From Escherichia phage 310Ecol104PP, in the sequence record OR062946.1: 64,000 nucleotides of DNA; one strand, given 5' to 3'. Of the stretch, positions 4,557 to 61,169 are shown piece by piece (positions within the stretch are counted from its first letter, which is position 1; every line of letters starts with the position of its first letter). Made by a program: the position numbers and the translations under genes. Under the pieces are notes generated by a model. The model saw only the letters and a list, made by a program, of their open reading frames with translations, was not told where the DNA came from and did not search any database.

Positions 4557-5553
4557 TTCAAGTGTTATCTATCGTGCGATAGTTACTTCAAAATTTAGAA
4601 CAGAAAAAATGTTGAATTTTTATAATTCAATTGGAAGTGGTCCGGATAAAAACACTATCTTTATCACATTTGGAAGATCAGAACCGTGGTCATCAAATGA
4701 AAATGAGGCGGGCTTTGCCCCGCCTTATCCCACTGATTCTGTATTAGGTGTAACTGACATGTGGACGCATATGATGGGAACCGTGAAGGTTCTTCCATCT
4801 ATGCTTGATGCAGTTATTCCTCGTCGAGATTGGGGAGATACTCGATATCCTGATCCATACACATTTAGAATTAATGACATTGTAGTGTGTAACTCAGCTC
4901 CTTACAACGCTACTGAATCAGGCGCAGGCTGGTTAGTATATCGTTGTTTAGATGTTCCTGATACCGGAATGTGTTCAATCGCATCTTTAACTGATAAAGA
5001 TGAATGCCTTAAGTTAGGTGGAAAATGGACTCCTTCTGCTAGGTCAATGACTCCTCCTGAAGGTCGAGGAGACGCGGAAGGAACAATTGAACCTGGAGAC
5101 GGATATGTTTGGGAATATCTTTTTGAGATTCCGCCTGATGTGTCTATAAATAGATGCACGAATGAATATATCGTGGTTCCTTGGCCTGAGGAATTAAAAG
5201 AAGACCCGACTAGATGGGGATATGAAGATAATCTCACATGGCAGCAAGATGATTTTGGATTAATTTACCGGGTTAAGGCAAATACTATTCGTTTTAAAGC
5301 ATATTTAGATTCAGTTTATTTTCCTGAAGCTGCATTGCCGGGAAATAAAGGATTTAGACAAATATCAATAATCACGAATCCTCTTGAAGCTAAAGCTCAT
5401 CCAAATGACCCAAACGTTAAAGCTGAAAAGGATTATTATGATCCGGAAGATTTAATGAGGCATTCGGGCGAAATGATTTATATGGAAAATAGGCCACCTA
5501 TTATCATGGCAATGGATCAAACAGAAGAAATCAATATTCTGTTTACATTTTAA
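4549..5553 (+). CDS. 8: baseplate wedge protein gp8
   Basis: 334 aa, T4 gp8 length; synteny; followed by hairpin terminator. Confidence 0.9.
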   Translation: MNDSSVIYRAIVTSKFRTEKMLNFYNSIGSGPDKNTIFITFGRSEPWSSNENEAGFAPPYPTDSVLGVTDMWTHMMGTVKVLPSMLDAVIPRRDWGDTRYPDPYTFRINDIVVCNSAPYNATESGAGWLVYRCLDVPDTGMCSIASLTDKDECLKLGGKWTPSARSMTPPEGRGDAEGTIEPGDGYVWEYLFEIPPDVSINRCTNEYIVVPWPEELKEDPTRWGYEDNLTWQQDDFGLIYRVKANTIRFKAYLDSVYFPEAALPGNKGFRQISIITNPLEAKAHPNDPNVKAEKDYYDPEDLMRHSGEMIYMENRPPIIMAMDQTEEINILFTF

Positions 5554-21387: not shown

Positions 21388-21812
21388 TGCTTCTGATCCC
21401 TGAAACTCATGAATTAGTTCTCGAGAATGTCGAAGCACTTATTCCTGAAGCACAGGGTCGCTTTGACGAATTGTCTTCTGCTTTAAATAAAGACGATATA
21501 AATACAATTGTCGAGAATATGCTTGATGATGAAACTGATTTAGCGGTTGCATTAGCTTCTATTAATGAAAATATGCCGTTAAATGAATTCATCGTTAAAC
21601 ATGTTTCCGCCCGTGGTGAAATTACTCGCACTAAAGACCGCAAAACGCGTGAACGTAATGCATTTCAAACCACTGGGCTGTCTAAAGCAAAACGTAGACA
21701 AATTGCTCGTAAAGCTACCAAAACGAAGATTGCCAATCCAGCAGGTCAATCTCGTGCTCAGCGTAAGCGTAAAAAAGCTCTTAAACGCCGTAAAGCATTA
21801 GGATTAAGCTAA
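21387..21812 (+). CDS. 68: prohead core protein gp68
   Basis: 141 aa, T4 gp68 length; synteny. Confidence 0.85.
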
Positions 21813-22450
21813 TGAATGAACCCCAATTACTAATTGAAACTTGGGGTCAACCTGGCGAAATTATTGATGGCGTGCCAATGCTTGAATCTCACGATGGAAA
21901 AGACTTAGGTTTAAAACCGGGTTTATACATCGAAGGAATATTCATGCAAGCGGAAGTTGTCAATAGAAATAAACGTCTTTATCCAAAACGCATATTAGAA
22001 AAAGCGGTAAAAGACTATATTAATGAGCAAGTTTTAACTAAACAAGCTCTCGGAGAATTAAATCATCCTCCACGCGCTAATGTTGACCCAATGCAAGCCG
22101 CTATCATTATAGAAGATATGTGGTGGAAAGGAAATGACGTATACGGACGAGCTCGTGTTATTGAAGGTGACCATGGTCCTGGAGATAAATTAGCAGCTAA
22201 TATTCGTGCCGGATGGATTCCAGGAGTTTCTTCTCGTGGATTAGGTTCATTGACTGACACAAATAAAGGTTATCGTATCGTAAACGAAGGATTCAAATTA
22301 ACTGTAGGTGTTGATGCAGTATGGGGTCCAAGTGCTCCAGATGCATGGGTAACTCCTAAGGAAATTACCGAATCACAGACGGCGGAAGCCGATACAAGTG
22401 CCGATGACGCCTATATGGCTCTCGCAGAGGCCATGAAAAAAGCGTTATAA
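21812..22450 (+). CDS. 21: prohead protease gp21
   Basis: 212 aa, T4 gp21 length; synteny. Confidence 0.9.
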   Translation: MNEPQLLIETWGQPGEIIDGVPMLESHDGKDLGLKPGLYIEGIFMQAEVVNRNKRLYPKRILEKAVKDYINEQVLTKQALGELNHPPRANVDPMQAAIIIEDMWWKGNDVYGRARVIEGDHGPGDKLAANIRAGWIPGVSSRGLGSLTDTNKGYRIVNEGFKLTVGVDAVWGPSAPDAWVTPKEITESQTAEADTSADDAYMALAEAMKKAL

Positions 22451-22480: not shown

Positions 22481-23290
22481 ATGCTTAAAGAACAACTGAT
22501 TGCCGAAGCGCAGAAAATTGATGCTTCCGTTGCTCTTGATAGTATTTTCGAATCAGTTAATATTTCTCCGGAAGCAAAAGAAACTTTCGGCACTGTATTC
22601 GAAGCTACCGTCAAGCAGCACGCCGTTAAATTAGCTGAATCTCATATCGCTAAAATTGCTGAAAAAGCAGAAGAAGAAGTAGAAAAAAATAAAGAAGAAG
22701 CCGAAGAAAAAGCTGAGAAGAAAATCGCTGAGCAAGCTTCTAAATTCATTGACCATCTTGCGAAAGAATGGCTCGCTGAAAATAAATTAGCAGTTGATAA
22801 AGGCATCAAAGCCGAACTGTTTGAATCCATGCTTGGTGGATTAAAAGAGCTCTTTGTTGAACACAACGTTGTTGTTCCAGAAGAATCAGTTGATGTTGTG
22901 GCTGAAATGGAAGAAGAGCTGCAAGAACATAAAGAAGAATCAGCTCGTCTGTTCGAAGAACTCAATATGCGCGACGCATATATCAATTATGTGCAGCGTG
23001 AAGTGGCATTGAGCGAAAGTACTAAAGATCTGACTGAGTCTCAAAAAGAAAAAGTCTCTGCTCTGGTCGAAGGTATGGATTATTCAGATGAATTCTCAAA
23101 TAAATTGAGTGCCATCGTAGAAATGGTGAAGAAGTCTAATAAAGATGAAAGCACTATTACTGAGGGTATAAATACTCCTGATACTGAAGCAGCCGGACTG
23201 AATTTCGTCACTGAAGCTGTAGAAGATAAAGCTGCACCTGGTGCAGAAGATATTGTAAGTGTATATGCGAAAGTCGCATCTCGTTTCTAA
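22481..23290 (+). CDS. 22: prohead scaffolding core protein gp22
   Basis: 269 aa; highly charged, Glu/Lys/Ala-rich, helical-looking; late promoter upstream. Confidence 0.9.
   Translation: MLKEQLIAEAQKIDASVALDSIFESVNISPEAKETFGTVFEATVKQHAVKLAESHIAKIAEKAEEEVEKNKEEAEEKAEKKIAEQASKFIDHLAKEWLAENKLAVDKGIKAELFESMLGGLKELFVEHNVVVPEESVDVVAEMEEELQEHKEESARLFEELNMRDAYINYVQREVALSESTKDLTESQKEKVSALVEGMDYSDEFSNKLSAIVEMVKKSNKDESTITEGINTPDTEAAGLNFVTEAVEDKAAPGAEDIVSVYAKVASRF
23167..23174 (+). promoter_or_regulatory. late promoter for gene 23, inside the 3' end of gene 22
   Basis: Exact TATAAATA about 135 nt upstream of the gene 23 ATG. Confidence 0.6.
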
Positions 23291-30317: not shown

Positions 30318-30346
30318 TAGATATATTTATTACATGGTATTTAGAC

Positions 30347-31858
30347 ATGACTGACATTAAAGTACATTTTTATGATTTTAGTCACGTGAGAATTGATTGT
30401 GAAGAAAGTACATTTCATGAACTCCGTGATTTCTTTAGCTTTGAAGCTGATGGGTATCGTTTTAATCCGAAATACAAATATGGTCACTGGGATGGACGAA
30501 TCCGTCTTTTAGATTATAATCGTCTTCTTCCATTTGGCTTAGTCGGGCAAATTAAAAAGTTCTGTGATAACTTTGGCTATAAAGCCTGGATTGACCCGCA
30601 AATTAACGAAAAAGAAGAATTATCAAGAAAAGATTTTGATGAATGGCTTTCTAAATTAGAAATCTATTCAGGAAATAAAAGAATTGAACCGCATTGGTAT
30701 CAAAAAGATGCAGTGTTCGAAGGATTAGTTAATCGTCGTAGAATTCTTAATCTTCCAACATCCGCTGGTAAATCTTTAATTCAAGCTTTGCTTGCGCGAT
30801 ATTATTTGGAAAATTATGAAGGTAAAATTCTTATCATTGTTCCAACAACTGCTCTGACAACTCAGATGGCTGATGACTTTGTTGACTATCGTTTATTCAG
30901 TCATGCAATGATAAAGAAAATTGGTGGCGGAGCATCAAAAGATGATAAATATAAAAATGATGCACCAGTCGTTGTTGGTACATGGCAAACTGTAGTTAAA
31001 CAACCGAAAGAATGGTTCTCACAGTTTGGAATGATGATGAATGATGAATGCCATCTTGCTACAGGAAAAAGTATTTCATCTATCATATCAGGTTTAAATA
31101 ACTGCATGTTCAAATTCGGTTTGTCTGGTTCATTACGTGATGGCAAAGCCAATATCATGCAGTATGTTGGAATGTTTGGTGAAATATTTAAGCCAGTAAC
31201 GACTTCTAAATTAATGGAAGATGGACAAGTAACTGAGCTAAAAATTAATAGTATTTTTCTTCGCTATCCCGATGAGTTCACTACTAAATTAAAGGGAAAA
31301 ACTTACCAAGAAGAAATAAAAATTATTACTGGGCTCAGTAAAAGAAATAAATGGATCGCTAAATTAGCTATTAAGCTTGCGCAAAAAGATGAAAACGCTT
31401 TTGTCATGTTTAAACATGTATCGCATGGTAAAGCTATTTTCGATTTAATTAAAAATGAGTACGATAAAGTTTATTACGTATCAGGGGAAGTTGATACCGA
31501 AACCCGCAATATAATGAAAACCTTAGCTGAAAATGGTAAAGGAATAATTATAGTAGCTAGTTATGGTGTATTTTCTACTGGTATTTCAGTTAAAAATCTG
31601 CATCACGTTGTTTTAGCGCACGGTGTTAAATCAAAAATCATTGTATTACAAACAATCGGTCGTGTATTACGTAAGCATGGTTCTAAAACAATCGCAACAG
31701 TCTGGGACCTCATAGATGATTGTGGCGTTAAGCCAAAATCTGCTAATACGAAAAAGAAATATGTTCATTTGAACTATCTTTTAAAACACGGCATTGATCG
31801 TATTCAGCGCTACGCAGATGAAAAATTTAATTACGTAATGAAAACAGTTAATTTATAA
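30347..31858 (+). CDS. uvsW: UvsW DNA/RNA helicase
   Basis: 503 aa; helicase motifs PTSAGKS and DECH; TATAAATA about 30 nt upstream. Confidence 0.95.
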   Translation: MTDIKVHFYDFSHVRIDCEESTFHELRDFFSFEADGYRFNPKYKYGHWDGRIRLLDYNRLLPFGLVGQIKKFCDNFGYKAWIDPQINEKEELSRKDFDEWLSKLEIYSGNKRIEPHWYQKDAVFEGLVNRRRILNLPTSAGKSLIQALLARYYLENYEGKILIIVPTTALTTQMADDFVDYRLFSHAMIKKIGGGASKDDKYKNDAPVVVGTWQTVVKQPKEWFSQFGMMMNDECHLATGKSISSIISGLNNCMFKFGLSGSLRDGKANIMQYVGMFGEIFKPVTTSKLMEDGQVTELKINSIFLRYPDEFTTKLKGKTYQEEIKIITGLSKRNKWIAKLAIKLAQKDENAFVMFKHVSHGKAIFDLIKNEYDKVYYVSGEVDTETRNIMKTLAENGKGIIIVASYGVFSTGISVKNLHHVVLAHGVKSKIIVLQTIGRVLRKHGSKTIATVWDLIDDCGVKPKSANTKKKYVHLNYLLKHGIDRIQRYADEKFNYVMKTVNL

Positions 31859-40386: not shown

Positions 40387-40418
40387 ATGGGGACCTTTCG
40401 GTCCCCATATTTTTATTT
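40387..40418 (+). terminator. intrinsic terminator after gene 54
   Basis: ATGGGGACC-TTTC-GGTCCCCAT followed by ATTTTTATTT. Confidence 0.8.
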
Positions 40419-40703
40419 ACGGAATGAAATAAAAGCAGCAACTGAAGCAACTAAACTGTCTTCAATATAAACCTCAATTTTTACCGGAGCTTCTGACTCA
40501 AATTTACCTGTTACTACACCTTGGAAAATACTTTCAGTCTGTTCTGGCTTTAAAAAATTTTCAGAAGGAAAAATTCCGAACTTTTTATCTGTTCCAAAAA
40601 TTTTGATAAATTCATCGTAAACTGCTTCATTAAAAGCATTATCAGCAGGAATAACGCCTTCAACTACAAGTTCTTGACCTAAAAAGCGCAAAGAAGATTT
40701 CAT
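40413..40703 (-). CDS. hypothetical protein (T4 alt.-3-like position)
   Basis: 96 aa ORF with GAGGAA Shine-Dalgarno; early-type promoter cassette upstream. Confidence 0.65.
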   Translation of the reverse strand: MKSSLRFLGQELVVEGVIPADNAFNEAVYDEFIKIFGTDKKFGIFPSENFLKPEQTESIFQGVVTGKFESEAPVKIEVYIEDSLVASVAAFISFRK

Positions 40704-40709
40704 TTTGTG

Positions 40710-40765
40710 TTCCTCATGTTATGTCAGTAAGACTACTATAACACAACACGAGGGACTTGTAAACT
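40710..40765 (-). promoter_or_regulatory. early promoter/leader cassette, copy A, upstream of the alt.-3-like ORF
   Basis: Minus-strand GTTTAC - 18 nt - TATAGT then leader with GAGGAA; about 51 of 53 nt identical to copy B. Confidence 0.5.
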
Positions 40766-42821
40766 ACATCTTGAACTTTTTAGACATTCCGTTGATGTTA
40801 ATCAAAGAAGCCAAGATTTGAGAAACTTCGTTTTCCTCTTCTTTTGATTCTTCTACAAGGAATTGATTAAATCCAGCCATTGGACGAACTTCACCAGTTT
40901 CCATTAAATGGTCGCCATCATATACTGATTCTTCTAATTGTTCAGAAGGAGGAACGATTGTACCTTCGATTAGATACTTGTTATAAGCAGTTTCTTTCAT
41001 AAAGTACGTACTTACTTTATTAATCTTCAGTAAAATTCCACGCGGTAGAATAACTTCAGCTTCTGATGGAAATCCTGATAAATGACCTGGAACGATAACT
41101 TTGATTCGCTCAGCTCCTTTAATTACCATACCCACGCTAGTTTCAGCATCTTCAATGGCATATGTAGAATGACTACCCATATGCATTAAATCTTCTGCAT
41201 CAACGGAACCTTCTCCTTCGCCAGAAAATACTGCGCCGGAATCATCTAGAGCCATATAGTTTTTACCATGCTCACCGAAGATATTTGGTTTAAGTGATGT
41301 CGATACGAAGTTCTTGAAATAGAACATTTTGTTTTCAATGTTATGACGCAAAGTTTTAAAGGTAACTTCTTGTCCACGGTAAAGTGTAGTTCCTGGAGGA
41401 AGAACTGATCCTTTGGCAAAGGCAGAATCCAACGTCTCGATGTGCTTAATAGCTCGTTCCATATATTCTTCACGGGTAGAATCTGGTTTACCCAAAAGGA
41501 ACGAGTTCATTTCAACATATGAATCTGCACAATAATCTTCAATTACATCAGATTCAGCTTGGGTTAATCCTTTTGGAGTTACTTCGGTGCTTGCGTATTC
41601 ATATGCCTGGGCAGCAGATTCATTAATCAATTTATAAATGCCATTCATGACAAATTGAATAATAGCTGTCTTTTCATCTGGCGTAGCTTTAGAACCTTTA
41701 ACTAAATCATTAATAATTTTCTTAATAACATCAAAGCTATTAGAAATATTAATGTCAGCAAGATCGCTTAAAATTTTATCAGTTTTATAATCAAAGAATT
41801 CTTTATTCTTTAAATATTCTTGAGAACCTTGATATGTTATATCGCTCTGCAACTTGATAGATGGATCACGTAAACGTGCATGGGCTAATGCAATATGATT
41901 TCGGAAGTTTTCTAGTTCGTAATCGCTAGATTTAAAACGAGAAGCACTTCTCATACCACCAATAGCTCCTTTGCTGAAGTTTGAACCAATCTGAATAACG
42001 CCAGAGTTCATTGGTCCTTCTGCTTTATACACCGGAACTTTAGATTCAAACTCTTGATATTTCTTAGCAGCGAAGCTATCACCATGAAGTGAAGCATCGA
42101 CAGTAGAATATTGAGCTTGTGCTGCTAATCGACGACTAATTTTAGTTTTCTGAATAACAGCTTGATCAGTGCGCTTATCATTTTCTAAAGCAATAGAAGC
42201 AGCAACAGCGACAGCTTTAGGAACAGCATTACCTGTTTTAACGTCTACATAAACATCACCAACCTTTGATTCAACTTTTGTGAATAACTCAGTTGAAATA
42301 GGAGGTACACCTGGAATGTCTTCTAAATTGGCATTTTTACGGTAAACCATAATATATGCATATTTCTTATCATAGTCCCAGATTTCCTTTAAGAGAACAT
42401 ATCGACCTGCTCCTTTAGTACGTACTAAACGGTCAGCAATAACTTGCATTTGACGAGCTGCGCCATTTGTTTTACTCTTTAGTACGCGGAATAGGCATGC
42501 GTCGATTTTATACTGTTTCATTGTTTGAAGAGCAGTATCAAAAACAGCATTAATGACGCCAATTGGATTTCCACCCAAGTTTCTAAGCTTAACCAGCGAT
42601 AATTTCTCGTTGACACCTATCATTACGATATGCATCATTTTATCGCCCGGCTTAACGTTTTTATTTGTATCACCGCCAGAGGTGTATGTACAAAATCTAA
42701 ATCCAGGAAGCACGCTTTCTTCACCGGCTTGAATAGCAAAAATTTGAGGTATTTTATGCTTAGGATTTAAGTTAACAACCGGCGCCGAAGCGCCGTCAAA
42801 TAATTCTGTAATAAGTTCCAT
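40764..42821 (-). CDS. Alt-family ADP-ribosyltransferase paralog (685 aa), probable packaged internal protein
   Basis: N-terminus MELITELFDG; C-terminal R (TTLYRGQ), STS (FVSTSL) and EAE (SEAEVILPRG) motifs. Confidence 0.85.
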   Translation of the reverse strand: MELITELFDGASAPVVNLNPKHKIPQIFAIQAGEESVLPGFRFCTYTSGGDTNKNVKPGDKMMHIVMIGVNEKLSLVKLRNLGGNPIGVINAVFDTALQTMKQYKIDACLFRVLKSKTNGAARQMQVIADRLVRTKGAGRYVLLKEIWDYDKKYAYIMVYRKNANLEDIPGVPPISTELFTKVESKVGDVYVDVKTGNAVPKAVAVAASIALENDKRTDQAVIQKTKISRRLAAQAQYSTVDASLHGDSFAAKKYQEFESKVPVYKAEGPMNSGVIQIGSNFSKGAIGGMRSASRFKSSDYELENFRNHIALAHARLRDPSIKLQSDITYQGSQEYLKNKEFFDYKTDKILSDLADINISNSFDVIKKIINDLVKGSKATPDEKTAIIQFVMNGIYKLINESAAQAYEYASTEVTPKGLTQAESDVIEDYCADSYVEMNSFLLGKPDSTREEYMERAIKHIETLDSAFAKGSVLPPGTTLYRGQEVTFKTLRHNIENKMFYFKNFVSTSLKPNIFGEHGKNYMALDDSGAVFSGEGEGSVDAEDLMHMGSHSTYAIEDAETSVGMVIKGAERIKVIVPGHLSGFPSEAEVILPRGILLKINKVSTYFMKETAYNKYLIEGTIVPPSEQLEESVYDGDHLMETGEVRPMAGFNQFLVEESKEEENEVSQILASLININGMSKKFKM

Positions 42822-42824
42822 GAT

Positions 42825-44921
42825 TTATCCTTGAACGAACTTGTAAGGCATGTTTGTAATATCTATGCAAGACGCAATAATTCCAAGAGATGATTCTACT
42901 TTCTGTTTAATATTTGATGAAACAAATGATGCAAAGTCAACTCTGTCTTCTATTTCAATATCACCTGTCATTGCAACTACTTCGCCGGTTTCCATTAAAT
43001 GGTCTCCGTCATAGATTACCGATTCAGTGAGTTCTTCTGTGGTCATAACTTCAGCTTGAATGAGTTTTGTATTATTAGACGTGGTTCCGTCATTATTAGA
43101 AGCATCAGTTATTTTATTAACTTTAACCATCAATCCGCGCGGTAGAATAACTTCAGCTTCTGTTGCTATTCCGAGACTTCCTGGATATACAACATTAACT
43201 TTATGAGCTCCATCAATTGCCCATCCTATTTGAACTTTAACGTATTCAGGATTTTCTTTATACGCTCTTATTTCGTTTGGATTAATAGTTATTCCTTCTT
43301 CATTTTTATCAACCGTTAATTCGTTACGAGCTTCTGGTTCTAAAAGACCAATACCAGCATGTGTAATTCCAAAACGCCCAAAAATGATAGGAGTTAAAGA
43401 AGTAGATACAAAATTTCTGAAATAGAACACTTTATTTTTAACTAGTGCTTCGTATATAGGAGCAGTCATACTTTGAGCACGATAAACTGTGATGCCTTCC
43501 GGTATGCGGTCACCATTTTCAAAAGCTGAATCTAAGTTATTTATAGCAGATTCAATTTCTTTTTCACTCATTACATCATATCGTTCTGGATTGTAACGAC
43601 CTAAAAGAAGATTATTAATGTCAGTATATCCTGAACCACAATACTCTCTAATGCCGCGCTTTTGTGATGGAGTATATTTAGAACCATCACGGGCAATAGT
43701 AATATCAATCATTGGACCTGCACCAATTCCAGAAAAACTATAAATCATTCTTTTGAGGAATTTAGTTTTTGCTGCGTTCCAGGAATTTTTAGTCATTTCT
43801 TCCCAGACTTCATCTGGCTGCCCTTTACGAGTTTTATTATGTTTATCAAGCCAATTATCTTTATATTCTTCAAAGAGTTGATTAACAGCTGCTGCGTATT
43901 TCTCTAAACATTTTATTGAAGTAGTTGGTTCATTTTTAATCGCATTAAGAATTACATCTTTAATTTTTTCAGAAACTTCATTAACCTCACTTTTTGAAAA
44001 GAATTTATAGTCATAATGAAGTTCATTCGCAGTTCCTTCGGCAATAATTTTTGCTGCCTTAGTTTTAGAAGCTAATGAATTAATTCCAAGCTTCATTTCT
44101 TCTGCTTCGGGAATTAAAGGAGCGGTAGCAGGTTTATTGAAATTAGCTGCGGTAGATTCATACTTCTGGAATAATTCACTTTCAAATCTAGAAGATTCCA
44201 ATGATTGACTTTGCGCAATTGCTCTACGGGAAATTTTAACTTTAACGATTACAGCTTGGTCAGAACGTTTATCATTTTCTTGTGCAATAGATGCTGCAAT
44301 TGCCTCATTTTTAGTTACTTGAGCTCCAGTATCTTTATTGATATAAACATCGCCGACTTTCGATTCAACTTTAGTAAAGAGCTCGGTACTAATTTCCGGA
44401 ACTCCTGGAATGTCTTCTAGTGATACATTTTTGCGATGTATAAGAATATATGCATACTTTTTATCATAATCCCAGAGTTCCTTAAGAAGGACGTATCTGC
44501 CACCTGAACGACTACGGATAAGTCTATCAGCAATAACTTGAATTTGTCGAGCTTGACCAGCGGTTTTAGACTTAAGAATACGAAGCATACAAGCATCAAT
44601 TTTATACTGACGCATTGTTTGCATTGCAACAGTAAAAACTGAATTGATATAATTAATTGGGCTTGGACCGAGACCTTTTAATTTAGCAATTGAACCTTTG
44701 GCAGTTAATGTAAAAGGAACAATATGCATCATTTTATCGCCCATCTTTAAATCGCGATTAGTATCACCTCCAGATGTATAGGTGCATAAACGAAAGCCTG
44801 GTTGTTCAATTGCATCATCAACACGAACTGAAAAAATTTGCGGTATTTTCTTCTTTGGATTTAAGTTTGTAATCGGAAGAGTAGTATCTTCGTCAAATAA
44901 TTCTGTAATAAGTTCCATCAT
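42825..44921 (-). CDS. alt: Alt ADP-ribosyltransferase (698 aa), packaged internal protein
   Basis: N-terminus MMELITELFDED; motifs R (ITVYRAQ), STS (FVSTSL), EAE (TEAEVILPRG); TATAAATA-type late promoter on the minus strand about 20 nt upstream. Confidence 0.8.
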   Translation of the reverse strand: MMELITELFDEDTTLPITNLNPKKKIPQIFSVRVDDAIEQPGFRLCTYTSGGDTNRDLKMGDKMMHIVPFTLTAKGSIAKLKGLGPSPINYINSVFTVAMQTMRQYKIDACMLRILKSKTAGQARQIQVIADRLIRSRSGGRYVLLKELWDYDKKYAYILIHRKNVSLEDIPGVPEISTELFTKVESKVGDVYINKDTGAQVTKNEAIAASIAQENDKRSDQAVIVKVKISRRAIAQSQSLESSRFESELFQKYESTAANFNKPATAPLIPEAEEMKLGINSLASKTKAAKIIAEGTANELHYDYKFFSKSEVNEVSEKIKDVILNAIKNEPTTSIKCLEKYAAAVNQLFEEYKDNWLDKHNKTRKGQPDEVWEEMTKNSWNAAKTKFLKRMIYSFSGIGAGPMIDITIARDGSKYTPSQKRGIREYCGSGYTDINNLLLGRYNPERYDVMSEKEIESAINNLDSAFENGDRIPEGITVYRAQSMTAPIYEALVKNKVFYFRNFVSTSLTPIIFGRFGITHAGIGLLEPEARNELTVDKNEEGITINPNEIRAYKENPEYVKVQIGWAIDGAHKVNVVYPGSLGIATEAEVILPRGLMVKVNKITDASNNDGTTSNNTKLIQAEVMTTEELTESVIYDGDHLMETGEVVAMTGDIEIEDRVDFASFVSSNIKQKVESSLGIIASCIDITNMPYKFVQG

Positions 44922-44941: not shown

Positions 44942-44949
44942 TATTTATA
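44942..44949 (-). promoter_or_regulatory. late promoter for alt
   Basis: Minus-strand TATAAATA about 20 nt upstream of the alt ATG. Confidence 0.6.
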
Positions 44950-44954
44950 AAATT

Positions 44955-44972
44955 AAAGGCCCGAAGGCCTTT
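44955..44972 (-). terminator. hairpin between gene 30 operon and alt
   Basis: AAAGGCC-CGAA-GGCCTTT. Confidence 0.55.
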
Positions 44973-45159
44973 AATAATCTATTGGTAAGAGAGTACGATA
45001 TATTTCAAACTTTGGACCTTTTTCATAAGCATCAAAAGTTTCTGTGAATTTATTATAAGCATATGCATCTATAAATTCAATCATGATTTGTGATACAGAA
45101 GTAGAAACATCTCCACCTTCTTTTTGAGCCACGACAATTGTTTCTAAGTAAGCTTTCAT
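44971..45159 (-). CDS. hypothetical protein (T4 alt.1-like position)
   Basis: 62 aa ORF whose start overlaps the gene 30 stop (ATGA). Confidence 0.6.
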   Translation of the reverse strand: MKAYLETIVVAQKEGGDVSTSVSQIMIEFIDAYAYNKFTETFDAYEKGPKFEIYRTLLPIDY

Positions 45160-46619
45160 AGACCAGTTACCTCATGAAAATCACCAAATACATCTTCGAA
45201 TGTATTAGCTTTAGTTTTATCTTCACGTAAACGAATCGCAATCGGAAGAAATAATTTAACGTAATCAGTGCGGCCATCGGATTTTAACCAACCGTTGCAT
45301 TCGCACTCTAGAATTTTTCCAATATAATAATTTTGGTTTTCCATAATGCGAGTACGGTCAAGTTCATGTGATTTTACACCGGCTTTATCTTTTAAGCCTG
45401 AACCAGCATTTACTTTAATTTTTCCACACTCTGATTCAAGAATAAATCCACCTGCTTTAGTAGGGTCTTTACGGTGAGGATAAATTCCTACAATTTTTAA
45501 ATCAACATCAATTACTTCTTTAAATTTATAGAGATTTTTTGAACGAGCATTTTCCCACAATCCATCGGTATTTTTGAGAATAATACCTTCAAGACCTTGG
45601 TCAATATACTTTTTATAAATTACCTTAGCTTCATCTAGGTTATTTACTACCTGGTTTTCAATTAAAATTACTTTATCATATCCTGATGTCATTTGTTCTA
45701 GTTTAGAAAAACGTACATCATATTTTAAACGAAATGCTGGAAGACCGTATATTTCTACCAACGGAACATAATCCCAGACCTGAAACTTCATGCATTGAGC
45801 TTCTTTTTCTGAAATAGTTCCCTTTAAAGATTTATTAGCGATTCCATTAGAAGTAGTACGTGATTCAGCTACTTCAGCAAACTCTTTAGCTTTACTAATT
45901 TCAGGATAAGCATCAAAAAGAAAATCTAGGCCTTCTGGCTCCTTTTTAACTTGCTCATGGTATACCAATTCGCCATCAATTAACACACCTTCTGGATGAA
46001 TCTGGCGGGCTTCAGCGGTCATTTTGATTAACTCTTCCTTAAGAAGATCTAATCCTAGATATTCATTACCAGCTCGTGATAAAAGACGGACATCATCTAA
46101 TTCATCACCTCTAACTTCAGCAAAACACCGAGCTCCATCTGCTTTTAATTGTGCAAAGGCTGGAAATTTGATATTCTTACTAATGCCTTTTTCATCATAA
46201 GAACTTGCGAGCATTTGAGGTTGTTCAGGAATTAAACCTGGCCAAACTTTGTTCGCAATAGATACTGAAGCGCCACATTCAAGATCTCGCATCATCACTC
46301 GACGCAAAACTTCAACATCATCTTTTTTACCATCGGTGATGTATCCAGTTAATTCCTCAATTGCAGCATTTCCAGTCAATTTCCGAGTAGCTAACGTGAA
46401 TTCAATGAAGTCAAGCATATCGGTAATAGTCAGCATTCCAAAACTCTGGGTAGCAATACCAGGTTTAGGCCATTTCTTTATATAATACTGTAACCCACGA
46501 GAATAAGTCAGACGATATACTCGTTTAAGCAATTCATTATCTTTATTCTTTTCAAGAATTGCTTGCTTCTGCTTAGTTGAACCAATAGATGCTATTTCGT
46601 TCAGAATTTTAAGAATCAT
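45156..46619 (-). CDS. 30: ATP-dependent DNA ligase gp30
   Basis: 487 aa; N-terminus MILKILNEIASIGSTKQKQAILEKN; adenylation motif KADGAR. Confidence 0.95.
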   Translation of the reverse strand: MILKILNEIASIGSTKQKQAILEKNKDNELLKRVYRLTYSRGLQYYIKKWPKPGIATQSFGMLTITDMLDFIEFTLATRKLTGNAAIEELTGYITDGKKDDVEVLRRVMMRDLECGASVSIANKVWPGLIPEQPQMLASSYDEKGISKNIKFPAFAQLKADGARCFAEVRGDELDDVRLLSRAGNEYLGLDLLKEELIKMTAEARQIHPEGVLIDGELVYHEQVKKEPEGLDFLFDAYPEISKAKEFAEVAESRTTSNGIANKSLKGTISEKEAQCMKFQVWDYVPLVEIYGLPAFRLKYDVRFSKLEQMTSGYDKVILIENQVVNNLDEAKVIYKKYIDQGLEGIILKNTDGLWENARSKNLYKFKEVIDVDLKIVGIYPHRKDPTKAGGFILESECGKIKVNAGSGLKDKAGVKSHELDRTRIMENQNYYIGKILECECNGWLKSDGRTDYVKLFLPIAIRLREDKTKANTFEDVFGDFHEVTGL

Positions 46620-57686: not shown

Positions 57687-58853
57687 AAAATATTTTTTAA
57701 AACTCATCATAACTTTATCATCAACGTCATTATCAATCTGTGCTACAAGATAAGATGACAGTTCTACTTCTTGCGGTGCAGATTGAACATTATCAGAATT
57801 AAGATATTCACGAATCCAAGGATACGGATGTTTAACCGGAGCATCAGTAATTGGGCATGGAAGACCACACTGTTTCATACGAGATACAGTTAAGTAATCA
57901 ATAAAGCTCCACATGCTATTTGTATTTAATCCAGGAACATCGCCATCTTTAAATAAATGAACTGCCCAGTCTTTTTCTTGACGGTTAACTTCCATGAAAA
58001 TATCAACTGCTTCTTGTTCACACTCTTGAGCAATTTTAACCCATTCATCACCATCAGTGCCAAGTTGAAGTTGACGAATAATATATTGGGTGCCTTTAAG
58101 GTGAAGCTGCTCATCACGTGCAATGAACTTCATAATCTTGGCATTACCTTCCATGATTTCCATGTTCTTATGGAAGTTAAAGGTACATGCGAAAGATACA
58201 TAAAAACGAATAGCTTCCAATGCGTTGATTACGTGCAGGCAGAGGTAAAGAGATTTCATTAGTGCTCGTTTAGTACATTCAACAACTTTGCCTAGCTCTT
58301 CTTTACGAAATCCTTCTGATAAAATTCCTTCATAATCTTCAACCGCATTCTGATATTCACGAGTCTTAACTAGAACGTCATCATAATAACGACCAATAGA
58401 TTCAGCACGTTTCATGATAGCTTTATCTAATACAATCTCATCAAATACCTTTGATGGATCAGTATAAAGATTTCGCATGATATGAGTATATGAACGACTG
58501 TGAATAGTTTCGCTAAAAGTCCATGTAGCAACCCATGTATCAAGGCTTGGATCTGAAATTAATGACATAAGTACAGCAGACGGTGCACGACCCTGAATGC
58601 TATCTAGAAGTGATTGATACTTCAGGTTATTAGTAAAAATATCTTGCTGATACTGAGGAAGCTTGTTAAATTGTGCAGCATCCATCATCAAGTTTACTTC
58701 TTCAGGACGCCAGAAAAATGATAATTGCTTTTCGGTTAAATCTTCAAAAACTTTATGGCGTTGAATATCATAACGCGCAATACCAAGACCTGAACCGAAG
58801 AACATAGGTTCTTTTAAAACATCAACTGGATTTGTATTAAAAACTGTGCTCAT
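57684..58853 (-). CDS. nrdB: ribonucleotide reductase small subunit, uninterrupted
   Basis: 389 aa continuous ORF; diiron motifs FSETIHSRSY and RDEQLHLKG. Confidence 0.95.
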   Translation of the reverse strand: MSTVFNTNPVDVLKEPMFFGSGLGIARYDIQRHKVFEDLTEKQLSFFWRPEEVNLMMDAAQFNKLPQYQQDIFTNNLKYQSLLDSIQGRAPSAVLMSLISDPSLDTWVATWTFSETIHSRSYTHIMRNLYTDPSKVFDEIVLDKAIMKRAESIGRYYDDVLVKTREYQNAVEDYEGILSEGFRKEELGKVVECTKRALMKSLYLCLHVINALEAIRFYVSFACTFNFHKNMEIMEGNAKIMKFIARDEQLHLKGTQYIIRQLQLGTDGDEWVKIAQECEQEAVDIFMEVNRQEKDWAVHLFKDGDVPGLNTNSMWSFIDYLTVSRMKQCGLPCPITDAPVKHPYPWIREYLNSDNVQSAPQEVELSSYLVAQIDNDVDDKVMMSFKKYF

Positions 58854-58880
58854 AAATTTTCCGCTTAGTTAATAGATAGT

Positions 58881-58898
58881 GACTCGTCCGTGAGTCAA
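58881..58898 (-). other. hairpin in the short nrdA-nrdB intergenic region
   Basis: TGACTC-GTCCGT-GAGTCA inverted repeat. Confidence 0.45.
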
Positions 58899-58904
58899 AT
58901 TATA

Positions 58905-61169
58905 TCATAATTTACAGGATGAACAATCTTCAGCTTTTGGAGTTTCTATTTCATAATCATCAGTACCAGAACCATCGCGGGTATTATGATAATAGAAATT
59001 TTTTCCGCCAAAATACCAAAAATACAAAAGGTCATCAATCATTATTGACATTGGAACCTTTCCTTTTGGAAAAATCTGCGGGTCATAATATGTATTCGCT
59101 GAAGCTGATTGACATACCCATTTCAGCATAATAGCTACCTGCGTAAGATAAGGTTTATTACCTTTCTTAGCTAATTTCCACGTATAATCATAGAGGTCTA
59201 TGTTATGCTCAATATTGGGCACGACTTGATTAAAGGAACCCTCTTTTGATTCTTTAACAGAGACTGGTCCACGTGGAGGCTCGATACCGTTTGTACTGTT
59301 AGAAACTTGGGAAGATGACTCACATGGCATAAGTGCTGATAATGTGCTATTACGGATGCCAAAGAGCTTAAGGTCTTCCCGCAGCGACGACCAGTCACAA
59401 ACGTATTTTGGAGCTGCGATTTGGTCAATCTTTTTATTGTACCAGTCGATAGGTAATTCGCCTCGAGACCAACGAGTGTCTGAATAATATTCGCAAGGTC
59501 CTTTTTCTTTGGCGAGCTTAATGGATGCTTTAATGAGTCCATACTGTAATCTCTCAAATAGTTCATGTGTTAAATCGTTAGCATCTTCATAAGAAGCAAA
59601 GTTACTTGCCAGCCAAGCTGCATAGTTGGTAACACCTACGCCAAGGTTTCGACGCTTTTTAGCTTTTTCTGCTTCAGGAACTGGATATCCTTGGTAATCC
59701 AAAAGATTATCAAGAGCACGAACTTGAACTTCTGCCAATTCATTAATTTTATCTTGGTCTTGCCAGTCAAAATTATCTAGTACGAATGCAGAGAGAGTAC
59801 ACAATCCAATTTCAGCATCAGGACTATTCACATCATTTGTTGGAATAGCAATTTCACAGCACAAGTTGCTCTGACGAATAGGTGCCTTTTCACGAATAAA
59901 CGGAGTATAGTTATTCGTATTATCAATGAATTGTACATAAATCCTTGCTGTTCCTGAGCGTTCAGTCATGAGCAATTCAAATAGTTCACGGGCTTTAATA
60001 CGCTTTTTACGAATATTAGGGTCTTTTTCTGCTGCTTCGTATAATTCACGGAAACGGTCTTGGTCTTTAAAATAAGAATAATAAAGCTCGCCACCCATTT
60101 CATGCGGACTGAACAAAGTAATGTAATCGTTCTTTCCGAATCGTTCCATCATCAAATCATTCAGCTGAACACCATAATCCATATGACGAATGCGGTTTTC
60201 TTCTACGCCTTTGTTATTTTTCAAAACGAGAAGATTTTCAACTTCCAAATGCCAAATAGGATAATAAGCAGTAGCTGCGCCGCCACGAATTCCACCCTGT
60301 GAGCATGATTTAACTGCAGTCTGAAAATGTTTCCAAAAAGGAATAACACCAGTATGACGTACTTCACCCATGCCAATCTTAGAACCTTCGGCACGAATCA
60401 TACCAACGTTAATACCAATTCCAGCGCGTTTAGAGATATATTCAACAATTGAAGCAGAAGCCTTATTGATAGACTTCAGTGAATCACCTGCCTCAATAAC
60501 AACACATGAACTAAACTGTCGAGTCGGAGTACGACAACCAGCCATAATAGGAGTTGGTAATGAAATCTGTCGAGTAGATACTGCTTCATAAAAACGAATA
60601 ACATGTTTTAATCTATCAACAGGTTCATCTTGATGCAGTGCCATTCCAATAGCCATAAATGCAAACTGTGGAGTTTCATAAATTTGACCAGTGGTTTTAT
60701 CTTTAACTAAATATTTTTCTTTTAATTGCATCGCCCCGGAATAAGTAAATTCCATATCCCGTTCGTGCTTAATTTTTGATTCTAAAAATGTAATTTCTTC
60801 TGCTGAATATTTTGACAATAATTCAGGGTCGTATTTACCTGCATTTACACAGTAAGAAATATGGTCAATAAATGAACGTGGTTCATACTGCCCATAAACA
60901 TGCTTACGAAGAGCAAACATTAAACAGCGTGCAGCTACATATTGATAATCAGGTTCTTCAACCGAAATAGAATTCGCAGCAGCCTTAATGACAATAGTCT
61001 GAATATCATCAGTTGTCATTCCATCACGGAGATAAGATTTAATATTTTCATATAATTCATAAGGATCTACTGATGTTCCCTCAGCTGCCCAAGATAAAAC
61101 TTTAATAATTTTTTGTGGGTCAAAGCTCTGAGAAACACCACTACTTTTGATAACATTAATTAATTGCAT
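58905..61169 (-). CDS. nrdA: ribonucleotide reductase large subunit
   Basis: 754 aa; active-site segment SNLCCEIA. Confidence 0.95.
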   Translation of the reverse strand: MQLINVIKSSGVSQSFDPQKIIKVLSWAAEGTSVDPYELYENIKSYLRDGMTTDDIQTIVIKAAANSISVEEPDYQYVAARCLMFALRKHVYGQYEPRSFIDHISYCVNAGKYDPELLSKYSAEEITFLESKIKHERDMEFTYSGAMQLKEKYLVKDKTTGQIYETPQFAFMAIGMALHQDEPVDRLKHVIRFYEAVSTRQISLPTPIMAGCRTPTRQFSSCVVIEAGDSLKSINKASASIVEYISKRAGIGINVGMIRAEGSKIGMGEVRHTGVIPFWKHFQTAVKSCSQGGIRGGAATAYYPIWHLEVENLLVLKNNKGVEENRIRHMDYGVQLNDLMMERFGKNDYITLFSPHEMGGELYYSYFKDQDRFRELYEAAEKDPNIRKKRIKARELFELLMTERSGTARIYVQFIDNTNNYTPFIREKAPIRQSNLCCEIAIPTNDVNSPDAEIGLCTLSAFVLDNFDWQDQDKINELAEVQVRALDNLLDYQGYPVPEAEKAKKRRNLGVGVTNYAAWLASNFASYEDANDLTHELFERLQYGLIKASIKLAKEKGPCEYYSDTRWSRGELPIDWYNKKIDQIAAPKYVCDWSSLREDLKLFGIRNSTLSALMPCESSSQVSNSTNGIEPPRGPVSVKESKEGSFNQVVPNIEHNIDLYDYTWKLAKKGNKPYLTQVAIMLKWVCQSASANTYYDPQIFPKGKVPMSIMIDDLLYFWYFGGKNFYYHNTRDGSGTDDYEIETPKAEDCSSCKL

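Follow-up and report, generated by a model that had tools for sequence, protein, structure and literature searches.

A tandem pair of intact Alt-family ADP-ribosyltransferase genes with predicted processing sites at both protein ends in Escherichia phage 310Ecol104PP

Escherichia phage 310Ecol104PP, analysed here over a stretch of 64,000 nucleotides of sequence record OR062946.1 (the window), carries two adjacent minus-strand genes of the Alt family of ADP-ribosyltransferases (ARTs). The locus consists of two intact, selectively maintained paralogues of Alt, the mono-ADP-ribosyltransferase that phage T4 packages in its head. The upstream gene (copy 1) is the T2/RB32-type allele of Alt, and the downstream one (copy 2) is Alt2, the alt.-2 of phage RB32. 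The best-supported reading of the sequence comparisons, to which we give a probability of about 0.6, is that both proteins are packaged, processed at both ends by the prohead protease gp21, and injected.

Results

Two full-length Alt-family genes with complete catalytic residues

A sequence-only reading of this DNA had pointed to two tandem Alt-family open reading frames (ORFs) of 685 and 698 residues, and both are indeed present on the minus strand and full-length. Copy 2, identified from the ORF listing and family matches, occupies 40764..42821 (-) and encodes 685 residues, as first reported. The upstream protein is more probably 697 than 698 residues long: the listed ORF extends to 44921, but the most likely start is the second ATG, at 44918, because it has the better-spaced Shine-Dalgarno sequence (GAGAGG, 5 nucleotides before it) and is the start annotated in T4 and RB32. 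Copy 1 then spans 42825..44918 (-) and begins MELITE, and the N-terminal sequence MELITELFD, which the earlier reading had described as common to both proteins, is identical in the two. A gap of 3 nucleotides separates the stop codon of copy 1 from the start of copy 2, which has its own Shine-Dalgarno sequence (AAGGA) 6 nucleotides upstream.

The pairwise alignment that had been proposed as a check gives 41% identity between the copies over their full length (BLASTP, E 8e-163); both were also compared with T4 Alt. PF03496 (ADPrib_exo_Tox) matches both proteins above its curated threshold, with E values of 6e-20 and 1e-37, and PHROG 802, 'Alt-like RNA polymerase ADP-ribosyltransferase', matches both end to end; a scan of NCBIfam gave no model matching either copy. 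The ART domain lies at 43038..43787 (-) in copy 1 and at 40962..41576 (-) in copy 2. Each was said to keep complete R, STS and EAE motifs, and these could be located and checked by translation: in copy 1, R480 (YRAQ; 43479-43481), S505-T-S507 (43398-43406) and E587-A-E589 (43152-43160), and in copy 2, R482 (YRGQ; 41376-41378), S507-T-S509 (41295-41303) and E587-A-E589 (41055-41063). The catalytic Arg and Glu are thus present in both copies. None of the catalytic R, STS and ExE residues varies among 20 aligned homologues, nor in a seven-sequence alignment that reaches phages of Klebsiella, Acinetobacter and Aeromonas. The fold matches that of arginine-specific Vis and of the C3, iota and VIP2 toxins. 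A sequence search of the PDB with copy 1 and the family profile gave weak matches only, to binary-toxin ARTs, and the same search with copy 2 gave no match; Alt is without a solved structure.

Predicted gp21 sites at both ends of both proteins

In T4 Alt, mass spectrometry showed that gp21 cuts at ITE-6, taking six residues off the N-terminus, and at LTE-619, taking 63 off the C-terminus (PMC5694885, summarised in PMC9026906), leaving a mature protein of 68.2 kDa (PMC5694885); the T4 Alt numbering used here places LTE at 617-619. The N-terminal propeptide MELITE, with a predicted cut after Glu6, is found in copy 1 (44901..44918, -), where it is identical to residues 1-6 of T4 Alt, and in copy 2 (42804..42821, -; translation checked). 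It is followed by LFD in both.

Both copies also possess a second, C-terminal processing site, which the sequence-only reading had missed. In copy 1 the motif is LTE (43023..43031, -), aligned with the C-terminal gp21 site LTE-619 of T4 Alt, and the predicted propeptide downstream of it has 65 residues (42828-43022, -). In copy 2 the corresponding position is occupied by LEE (40929..40937, -), with a predicted C-terminal propeptide of 54 residues (40767-40928, -). Beyond the LTE and the LEE comes a conserved block, (S)V(I)YDGDHLMETGEV. After both cuts the predicted mature masses are 70.1 kDa for copy 1 (residues 7-632) and 69.2 kDa for copy 2 (residues 7-631), down from 78 and 76 kDa in the unprocessed forms; mature copy 2 is predicted to have the neo-N-terminus LFDGASAPVVNLNPK (LFDGASAPV...) and the neo-C-terminus ...PPSEQLEE.

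The two (L/I)-x-E positions, at residues 4-6 and at the T4 LTE-619 site followed by YDGD, are kept in every Straboviridae homologue aligned, and both cleavage-site glutamates are invariant across Alt homologues from Klebsiella, Acinetobacter, Aeromonas and other E. coli phages (four other Straboviridae lineages). Because both motifs are conserved in such distant homologues, double-ended processing appears to be a family-wide trait of Alt.

Copy 2 is maintained, and T4 keeps only a remnant of it

Copy 2 differs from its RB32 orthologue by 46 synonymous and 5 non-synonymous changes, a ratio of non-synonymous to synonymous rates (dN/dS) of 0.028; the corresponding ratio for copy 1 is 0.085. A tblastn search found copy 2 at an amino acid identity of at least 90% in 401 phage records, including T2, T6, RB9, RB27, RB32, AR1 and PP01, and its identity to the Alt2 of other phages is 96-99.6%. 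On the strength of the dN/dS value and of the 401 records, copy 2 is clearly maintained, under strong purifying selection. The window-type copy 1 was found at an identity of at least 90% in 318 phage records; it is 99.9% identical to the 'ADP-ribosyltransferase Alt' of phage AdolfPortmann. A further 211 records fall in the 60-80% band relative to copy 1; this band includes the T4-type alleles, with T4 itself at 68.5%. The possibility that copy 2 is a pseudogene or an inactive duplicate was considered and rejected, given its intact ORF, invariant catalytic residues and dN/dS.

Whether T4 itself carries the second copy had been left as a question by the sequence-only reading. In the T4 genome (NC_000866), the small ORFs alt.-1 and alt.-2 come after alt (682 residues), and there is no intact second gene; the second copy survives only as this alt.-1/alt.-2 remnant. 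The remnant is the orthologue of the 5' end of copy 2, over its first ~117 codons (positions 5066-5451 of the T4 extract compared), with 94.8% nucleotide identity to copy 2 versus 67.3% to copy 1. It is broken by a 1-nucleotide deletion in an A-run, and a 1699-nucleotide deletion between the near-repeats CTAAAGAGT and CTAAAAAGT joins it to the last 20 nucleotides of the gene, with a 9-bp microhomology, CTAAA(G/A)AGT, at the junction. Since alt.-1/alt.-2 align as the 5' end of copy 2 plus deletions, the comparison indicates that T4 has lost a full-length Alt paralogue. The T4 record treats alt.-1/alt.-2 as a partial duplication of T4 alt, an interpretation that we rejected in favour of a deletion remnant on account of the 94.8% versus 67.3% identities and the microhomology. 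The large deletion seems to be common to an estimated 100 of about 500 related records, some of which are without the 1-nucleotide frameshift.

The ends are shared and the centres differ

The similarity between the two copies is distributed very unevenly. Over residues 1-239, which form a conserved N-terminal domain, they are 65-66% identical; identity falls to 11-17% in the central helical region, bearing out the earlier remark that the central regions differ, and the ART domain and the C-terminal tail give values of 31-35% and 38%. In copy 1 the N-terminal domain lies at 44202..44918 (-) and is 99-100% identical to that of T4, SH7 and AR1 Alt; in copy 2, where it is an alpha/beta domain, it lies at 42105..42821 (-) and has no confident relative among solved structures. 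PF26846 is the precomputed Pfam label on this domain in homologues. Because 65% identity is kept here between paralogues otherwise so divergent, the N-terminal domain, rather than the six-residue propeptide, may carry a shared function in assembly or ejection.

The stretch from STS to ExE has no recognisable similarity between the copies and contains indels, and the residues leading into ExE read GIATEAE for copy 1, GFPSEAE for copy 2 and APSNEME for T4 Alt. In C3-like ARTs the ADP-ribosylating toxin turn-turn (ARTT) loop, the region just before ExE, contributes to substrate choice. Since the central region and the active-site loops are almost unrelated between the two proteins, these probably modify different sets of host proteins.

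Copy 1 also resembles T4 Alt unevenly. At protein level the two share 99% of positions over residues 1-239 and 91% in the tail, but 35% in the centre and 60% in the ART domain. At the nucleotide level, identity to T4 alt is 94-100% upstream of 44176, 41-72% across 44175-43189, 68-86% across 43188-42922 and 96-97% beyond 42921, with a sharp boundary at ~44175. These values delimit a divergent cassette of ~1.2 kb (42920..44175, -) that takes in the helical centre and the greater part of the ART domain. Phages SH7 and AR1 have the T4-type cassette alongside an intact copy 2. As judged from these alignments, the alt locus is one of constant ends and at least three centre-plus-ART cassettes, namely T4-type Alt, T2-type Alt and Alt2; the sharp identity boundaries suggest allelic exchange of cassettes (T4-type against T2-type Alt) by recombination.

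Transcription signals

An exact match to the T4-type late promoter box, TATAAATA, lies ~20 nucleotides upstream of the copy 1 start (44942..44949, -); the window holds 18 matches to the late box versus 9.6 expected. The box sits just after a GC-rich hairpin (44955..44972, -), read directly from the sequence as AAAGGCC-TTCG-GGCCTTT followed by AATTTT, which overlaps the alt.1 stop codon. This hairpin was not listed by the consensus terminator scan, and likely serves early or middle transcripts coming from upstream as a terminator or RNA-end element. The same scan found no terminator-like site between copy 1, copy 2 and the following gene alt.-3, and the first convincing terminator is a bidirectional hairpin at 40387..40408, between alt.-3 and gene 54. 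Time courses of the T4 transcriptome and proteome place alt among the late genes (PMC9697503). Given the late box, the 3-nucleotide gap between the genes, the lack of a terminator between them and the late expression of T4 alt, copy 2 is likely co-transcribed with copy 1 during prohead building.

A second exact TATAAATA box is found inside the copy 1 coding sequence (43538-43545, -), ~720 nucleotides before the Alt2 start, and could be either a chance match or a late promoter for Alt2 internal to copy 1. The stop codon of Alt2 is followed directly by a good sigma-70-like promoter match (40735-40763, -), with TTTACA, a 17-nucleotide spacer, TATAGT and an upstream TG. As this match stands in front of alt.-3, that gene may also be expressed independently, possibly early.

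Genomic setting

The 5-kb alt region is 99.4% identical to that of Escherichia phage AdolfPortmann and 97-98% identical to those of RB32, RB27 and T2, and at least 80% of it is covered by 343 phage records. By these identities the window is that of a Tequatrovirus of the T2/RB32 type, near T2, RB32 and AdolfPortmann. Outside the alt region, AdolfPortmann and the window are 94-98% identical. Two ~630-bp AdolfPortmann inserts, putative homing endonucleases, are absent from the window at ~30333-30353 and ~58853-58909; one insert site lies between inh and uvsW and the other between nrdB and nrdA.

Upstream of the Alt pair are alt.1 (44971..45159) and then the DNA ligase gene 30 (45156..46619). The final gene of the alt cluster is alt.-3 (40413..40703, -), encoding a DUF5498 protein of 96 residues, beyond which lie the baseplate genes 48 and 54 in convergent orientation. 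This order, from gene 30 and alt.1 to alt.-3 and gene 54, matches that of T4 and RB32. The window also encodes the trans-acting prohead protease gp21 (Peptidase_S77; 21812..22450, +), which is expected to cut both Alt proteins, and the scaffold protein gp22 (22481-23290).

Discussion

The features described above fit a scheme in which the TATAAATA promoter ahead of copy 1 would drive late transcription of both genes. The two products would have three parts in common: the ~240-residue N-terminal domain, the MELITE propeptide and the C-terminal propeptide, each propeptide being bounded by an (L/I)-x-E motif of the kind recognised by gp21. Alt and Alt2 would be built into the prohead core, trimmed by gp21 at both ends to about 70 and 69 kDa, retained in the head and ejected along with the DNA. 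Once inside the new host, both would act as arginine-specific (E-x-E type) ADP-ribosyltransferases, probably on different sets of host proteins. Three parts of this scheme we infer: that copy 2 is packaged, that either protein is enzymatically active in this phage, and that their targets differ.

Several observations weigh against it. The literature searched yielded no direct evidence of copy 2 in virions. Analysis of CsCl-purified virions of the Shigella phage SH7 using liquid chromatography coupled to tandem mass spectrometry gave 13 structural proteins and one 'ADP-ribosylase', the latter from 2 peptides with 3% coverage (PMC5238451). Its coordinates (119150-121210) identify this protein as SH7_0189, the T4-type Alt of the upstream gene; SH7_0188, orthologous to Alt2, is not listed among the proteins identified, a negative that is weak because the data set is shallow (13 proteins). 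An ADP-ribosylase was also seen in AR1 virions, according to the account given in PMC5238451. The earlier reading took MELITELFD for a signal of both processing and capsid targeting, and here only the first half stands: processing agrees with the ITE-6 cut of T4 Alt, and targeting is not established for Alt. The capsid-targeting sequence (CTS; Mullaney and Black 1996) was defined on IPIII, where it was demonstrated to be enough to bring a protein into the prohead core (as cited in PMC9026906 and PMC5694885). A targeting role for the Alt propeptide is assumed in reviews by analogy with IPIII, with no demonstration for Alt itself that we could find, and Ali et al. 2017 explicitly left open whether the two Alt propeptides serve targeting, tethering or control of activity (PMC5694885). 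The proposed difference in targets is drawn solely from sequence divergence, and biochemical data on the T2-type Alt allele or on Alt2 were not found in the literature searched. Lastly, T4 and ~100 related records have lost copy 2, so that it must be dispensable on at least some hosts.

Part of this evidence would also fit an active copy 2 that is made late but left out of the head, or packaged only in traces, and that acts in the producing cell in the manner of a late Mod-type enzyme or has some other non-virion role. The recovery of the upstream copy only from SH7 virions agrees with this, as does the failure of full-text searches to turn up any publication on Alt2 packaging. We nevertheless consider it unlikely: the SH7 data are too shallow to exclude packaging, and copy 2 keeps MELITE, the aligned C-terminal (L/I)-x-E with its YDGDHLMETGE block and a 65% identical N-terminal domain, features whose only known use is in head assembly. 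Packaging of both proteins could, on the other hand, amount to simple redundancy, with copy 2 acting on the same principal target as Alt (Arg265 in the alpha subunit of RNA polymerase) and being kept for dosage or as a back-up. The copies do belong to one family and have the ExE (arginine-type) motif, the transcription unit and the processing signals in common. But with ART domains 31-35% and centres 11-17% identical, an STS-ExE segment that differs and contains indels, and GFPSEAE in one protein where the other has GIATEAE, redundancy seems a doubtful explanation, and a dosage duplicate would not be expected to be so divergent and yet so well conserved individually (96-99.6% across phages). 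That copy 2 is a dispensable duplicate heading for loss as in T4, with no distinct function, strikes us as very improbable. The frameshifted and deleted remnant in T4 and ~100 records might be read in that way, and T4 Alt is itself non-essential (PMC9026906). Against this, about 400 records contain copy 2 as an intact, full-length gene, and its few non-synonymous differences from RB32 and invariant catalytic residues are not those of a decaying gene. Packaging, double-ended processing and injection of both proteins thus remains the reading that we favour.

Among the closest known systems, T4 Alt (gpAlt, NP_049811) resembles both window copies in its PF03496 and Alt N-terminal domains, its PHROG 802 membership, its position between gene 30/alt.1 and gene 54, its type of late promoter, its MELITE propeptide and its aligned LTE/LEE site. 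It differs from copy 1 in the centre (35%) and ART domain (60%) of the T2/RB32-type allele, and from copy 2 more widely, the identity being only 41-42% overall and 65% over residues 1-239. The known targets of T4 Alt cannot simply be transferred to either copy. Copy 2 corresponds to the alt.-2 or Alt2 of RB32, T2, T6, AR1 and the BASEL phages (e.g. ABI95018, QXV75308, BAI83209), with the same position and length and no difference of substance; these are annotations only, to which no function is attached. Like the Alt proteins, the T4 internal proteins IPI-IPIII with their CTS have an N-terminal propeptide ending in (L/I)-x-E that is cut by gp21, enter the prohead core and are ejected with the DNA (PMC9026906, PMC5694885); the Alt propeptide is shorter (6 residues versus 10-20), and Alt has a C-terminal propeptide in addition.

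The bacterial toxins of the R-S-E clade (Vis, C3bot, iota Ia, CDTa, VIP2, Certhrax) are more remote, at 14-26% identity, and are secreted proteins without modules for delivery from a phage head. T4 ModA and ModB are proteins of about 200 residues that lack the Alt N-terminal domain and the propeptides. They too are phage-encoded R-S-E ARTs with host proteins as substrates, but are made after infection rather than injected from the head (PMC5512222).

As a genomic feature, the gene pair is real, ordinary for this phage group and already known. The paralogy of alt with neighbouring ORFs was remarked on in 2006 (PMC1524935), the RB32 record describes 'alt.-2 ... similar to alt', and the AR1 record names both genes alt. 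RefSeq labels both 'Alt-like RNA polymerase ADP-ribosyltransferase', and the BASEL phage closest to the window has 'Alt' and 'Alt2'. With annotations in hundreds of records the pair is not new as an observation, and no functional study of Alt2 or of the T2-type Alt allele was found in the literature searched. The C-terminal processing site, the purifying selection on copy 2, the reinterpretation of the T4 remnant and the cassette structure are modest additions, not discoveries.

A more speculative view, which we hold only tentatively, is that the Alt locus is organised like a polymorphic-toxin system, in which delivery modules (the N-terminal domain and the two gp21-cleaved propeptides) flank exchangeable warheads (the centre and ART domain). 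The phage would then inject T2-type Alt together with Alt2, both distinct from the warhead studied in T4 and each with targets of its own, possibly including defence systems, and T4 would be the reduced case, having lost one of the two.

Almost all knowledge of injected phage ADP-ribosyltransferases comes from T4 Alt. T4 has lost a second Alt paralogue that is present, and strongly conserved, in most of its relatives, T2 and T6 included; many of these also have an Alt allele of another type. Should both proteins be injected, two uncharacterised enzymes would take part in the early takeover of the host by these phages, and their targets could help to explain why T-even phages differ in host range or in how sensitive they are to defence systems. 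The value of the Alt/Alt2 pair is that of a well-defined experimental lead.

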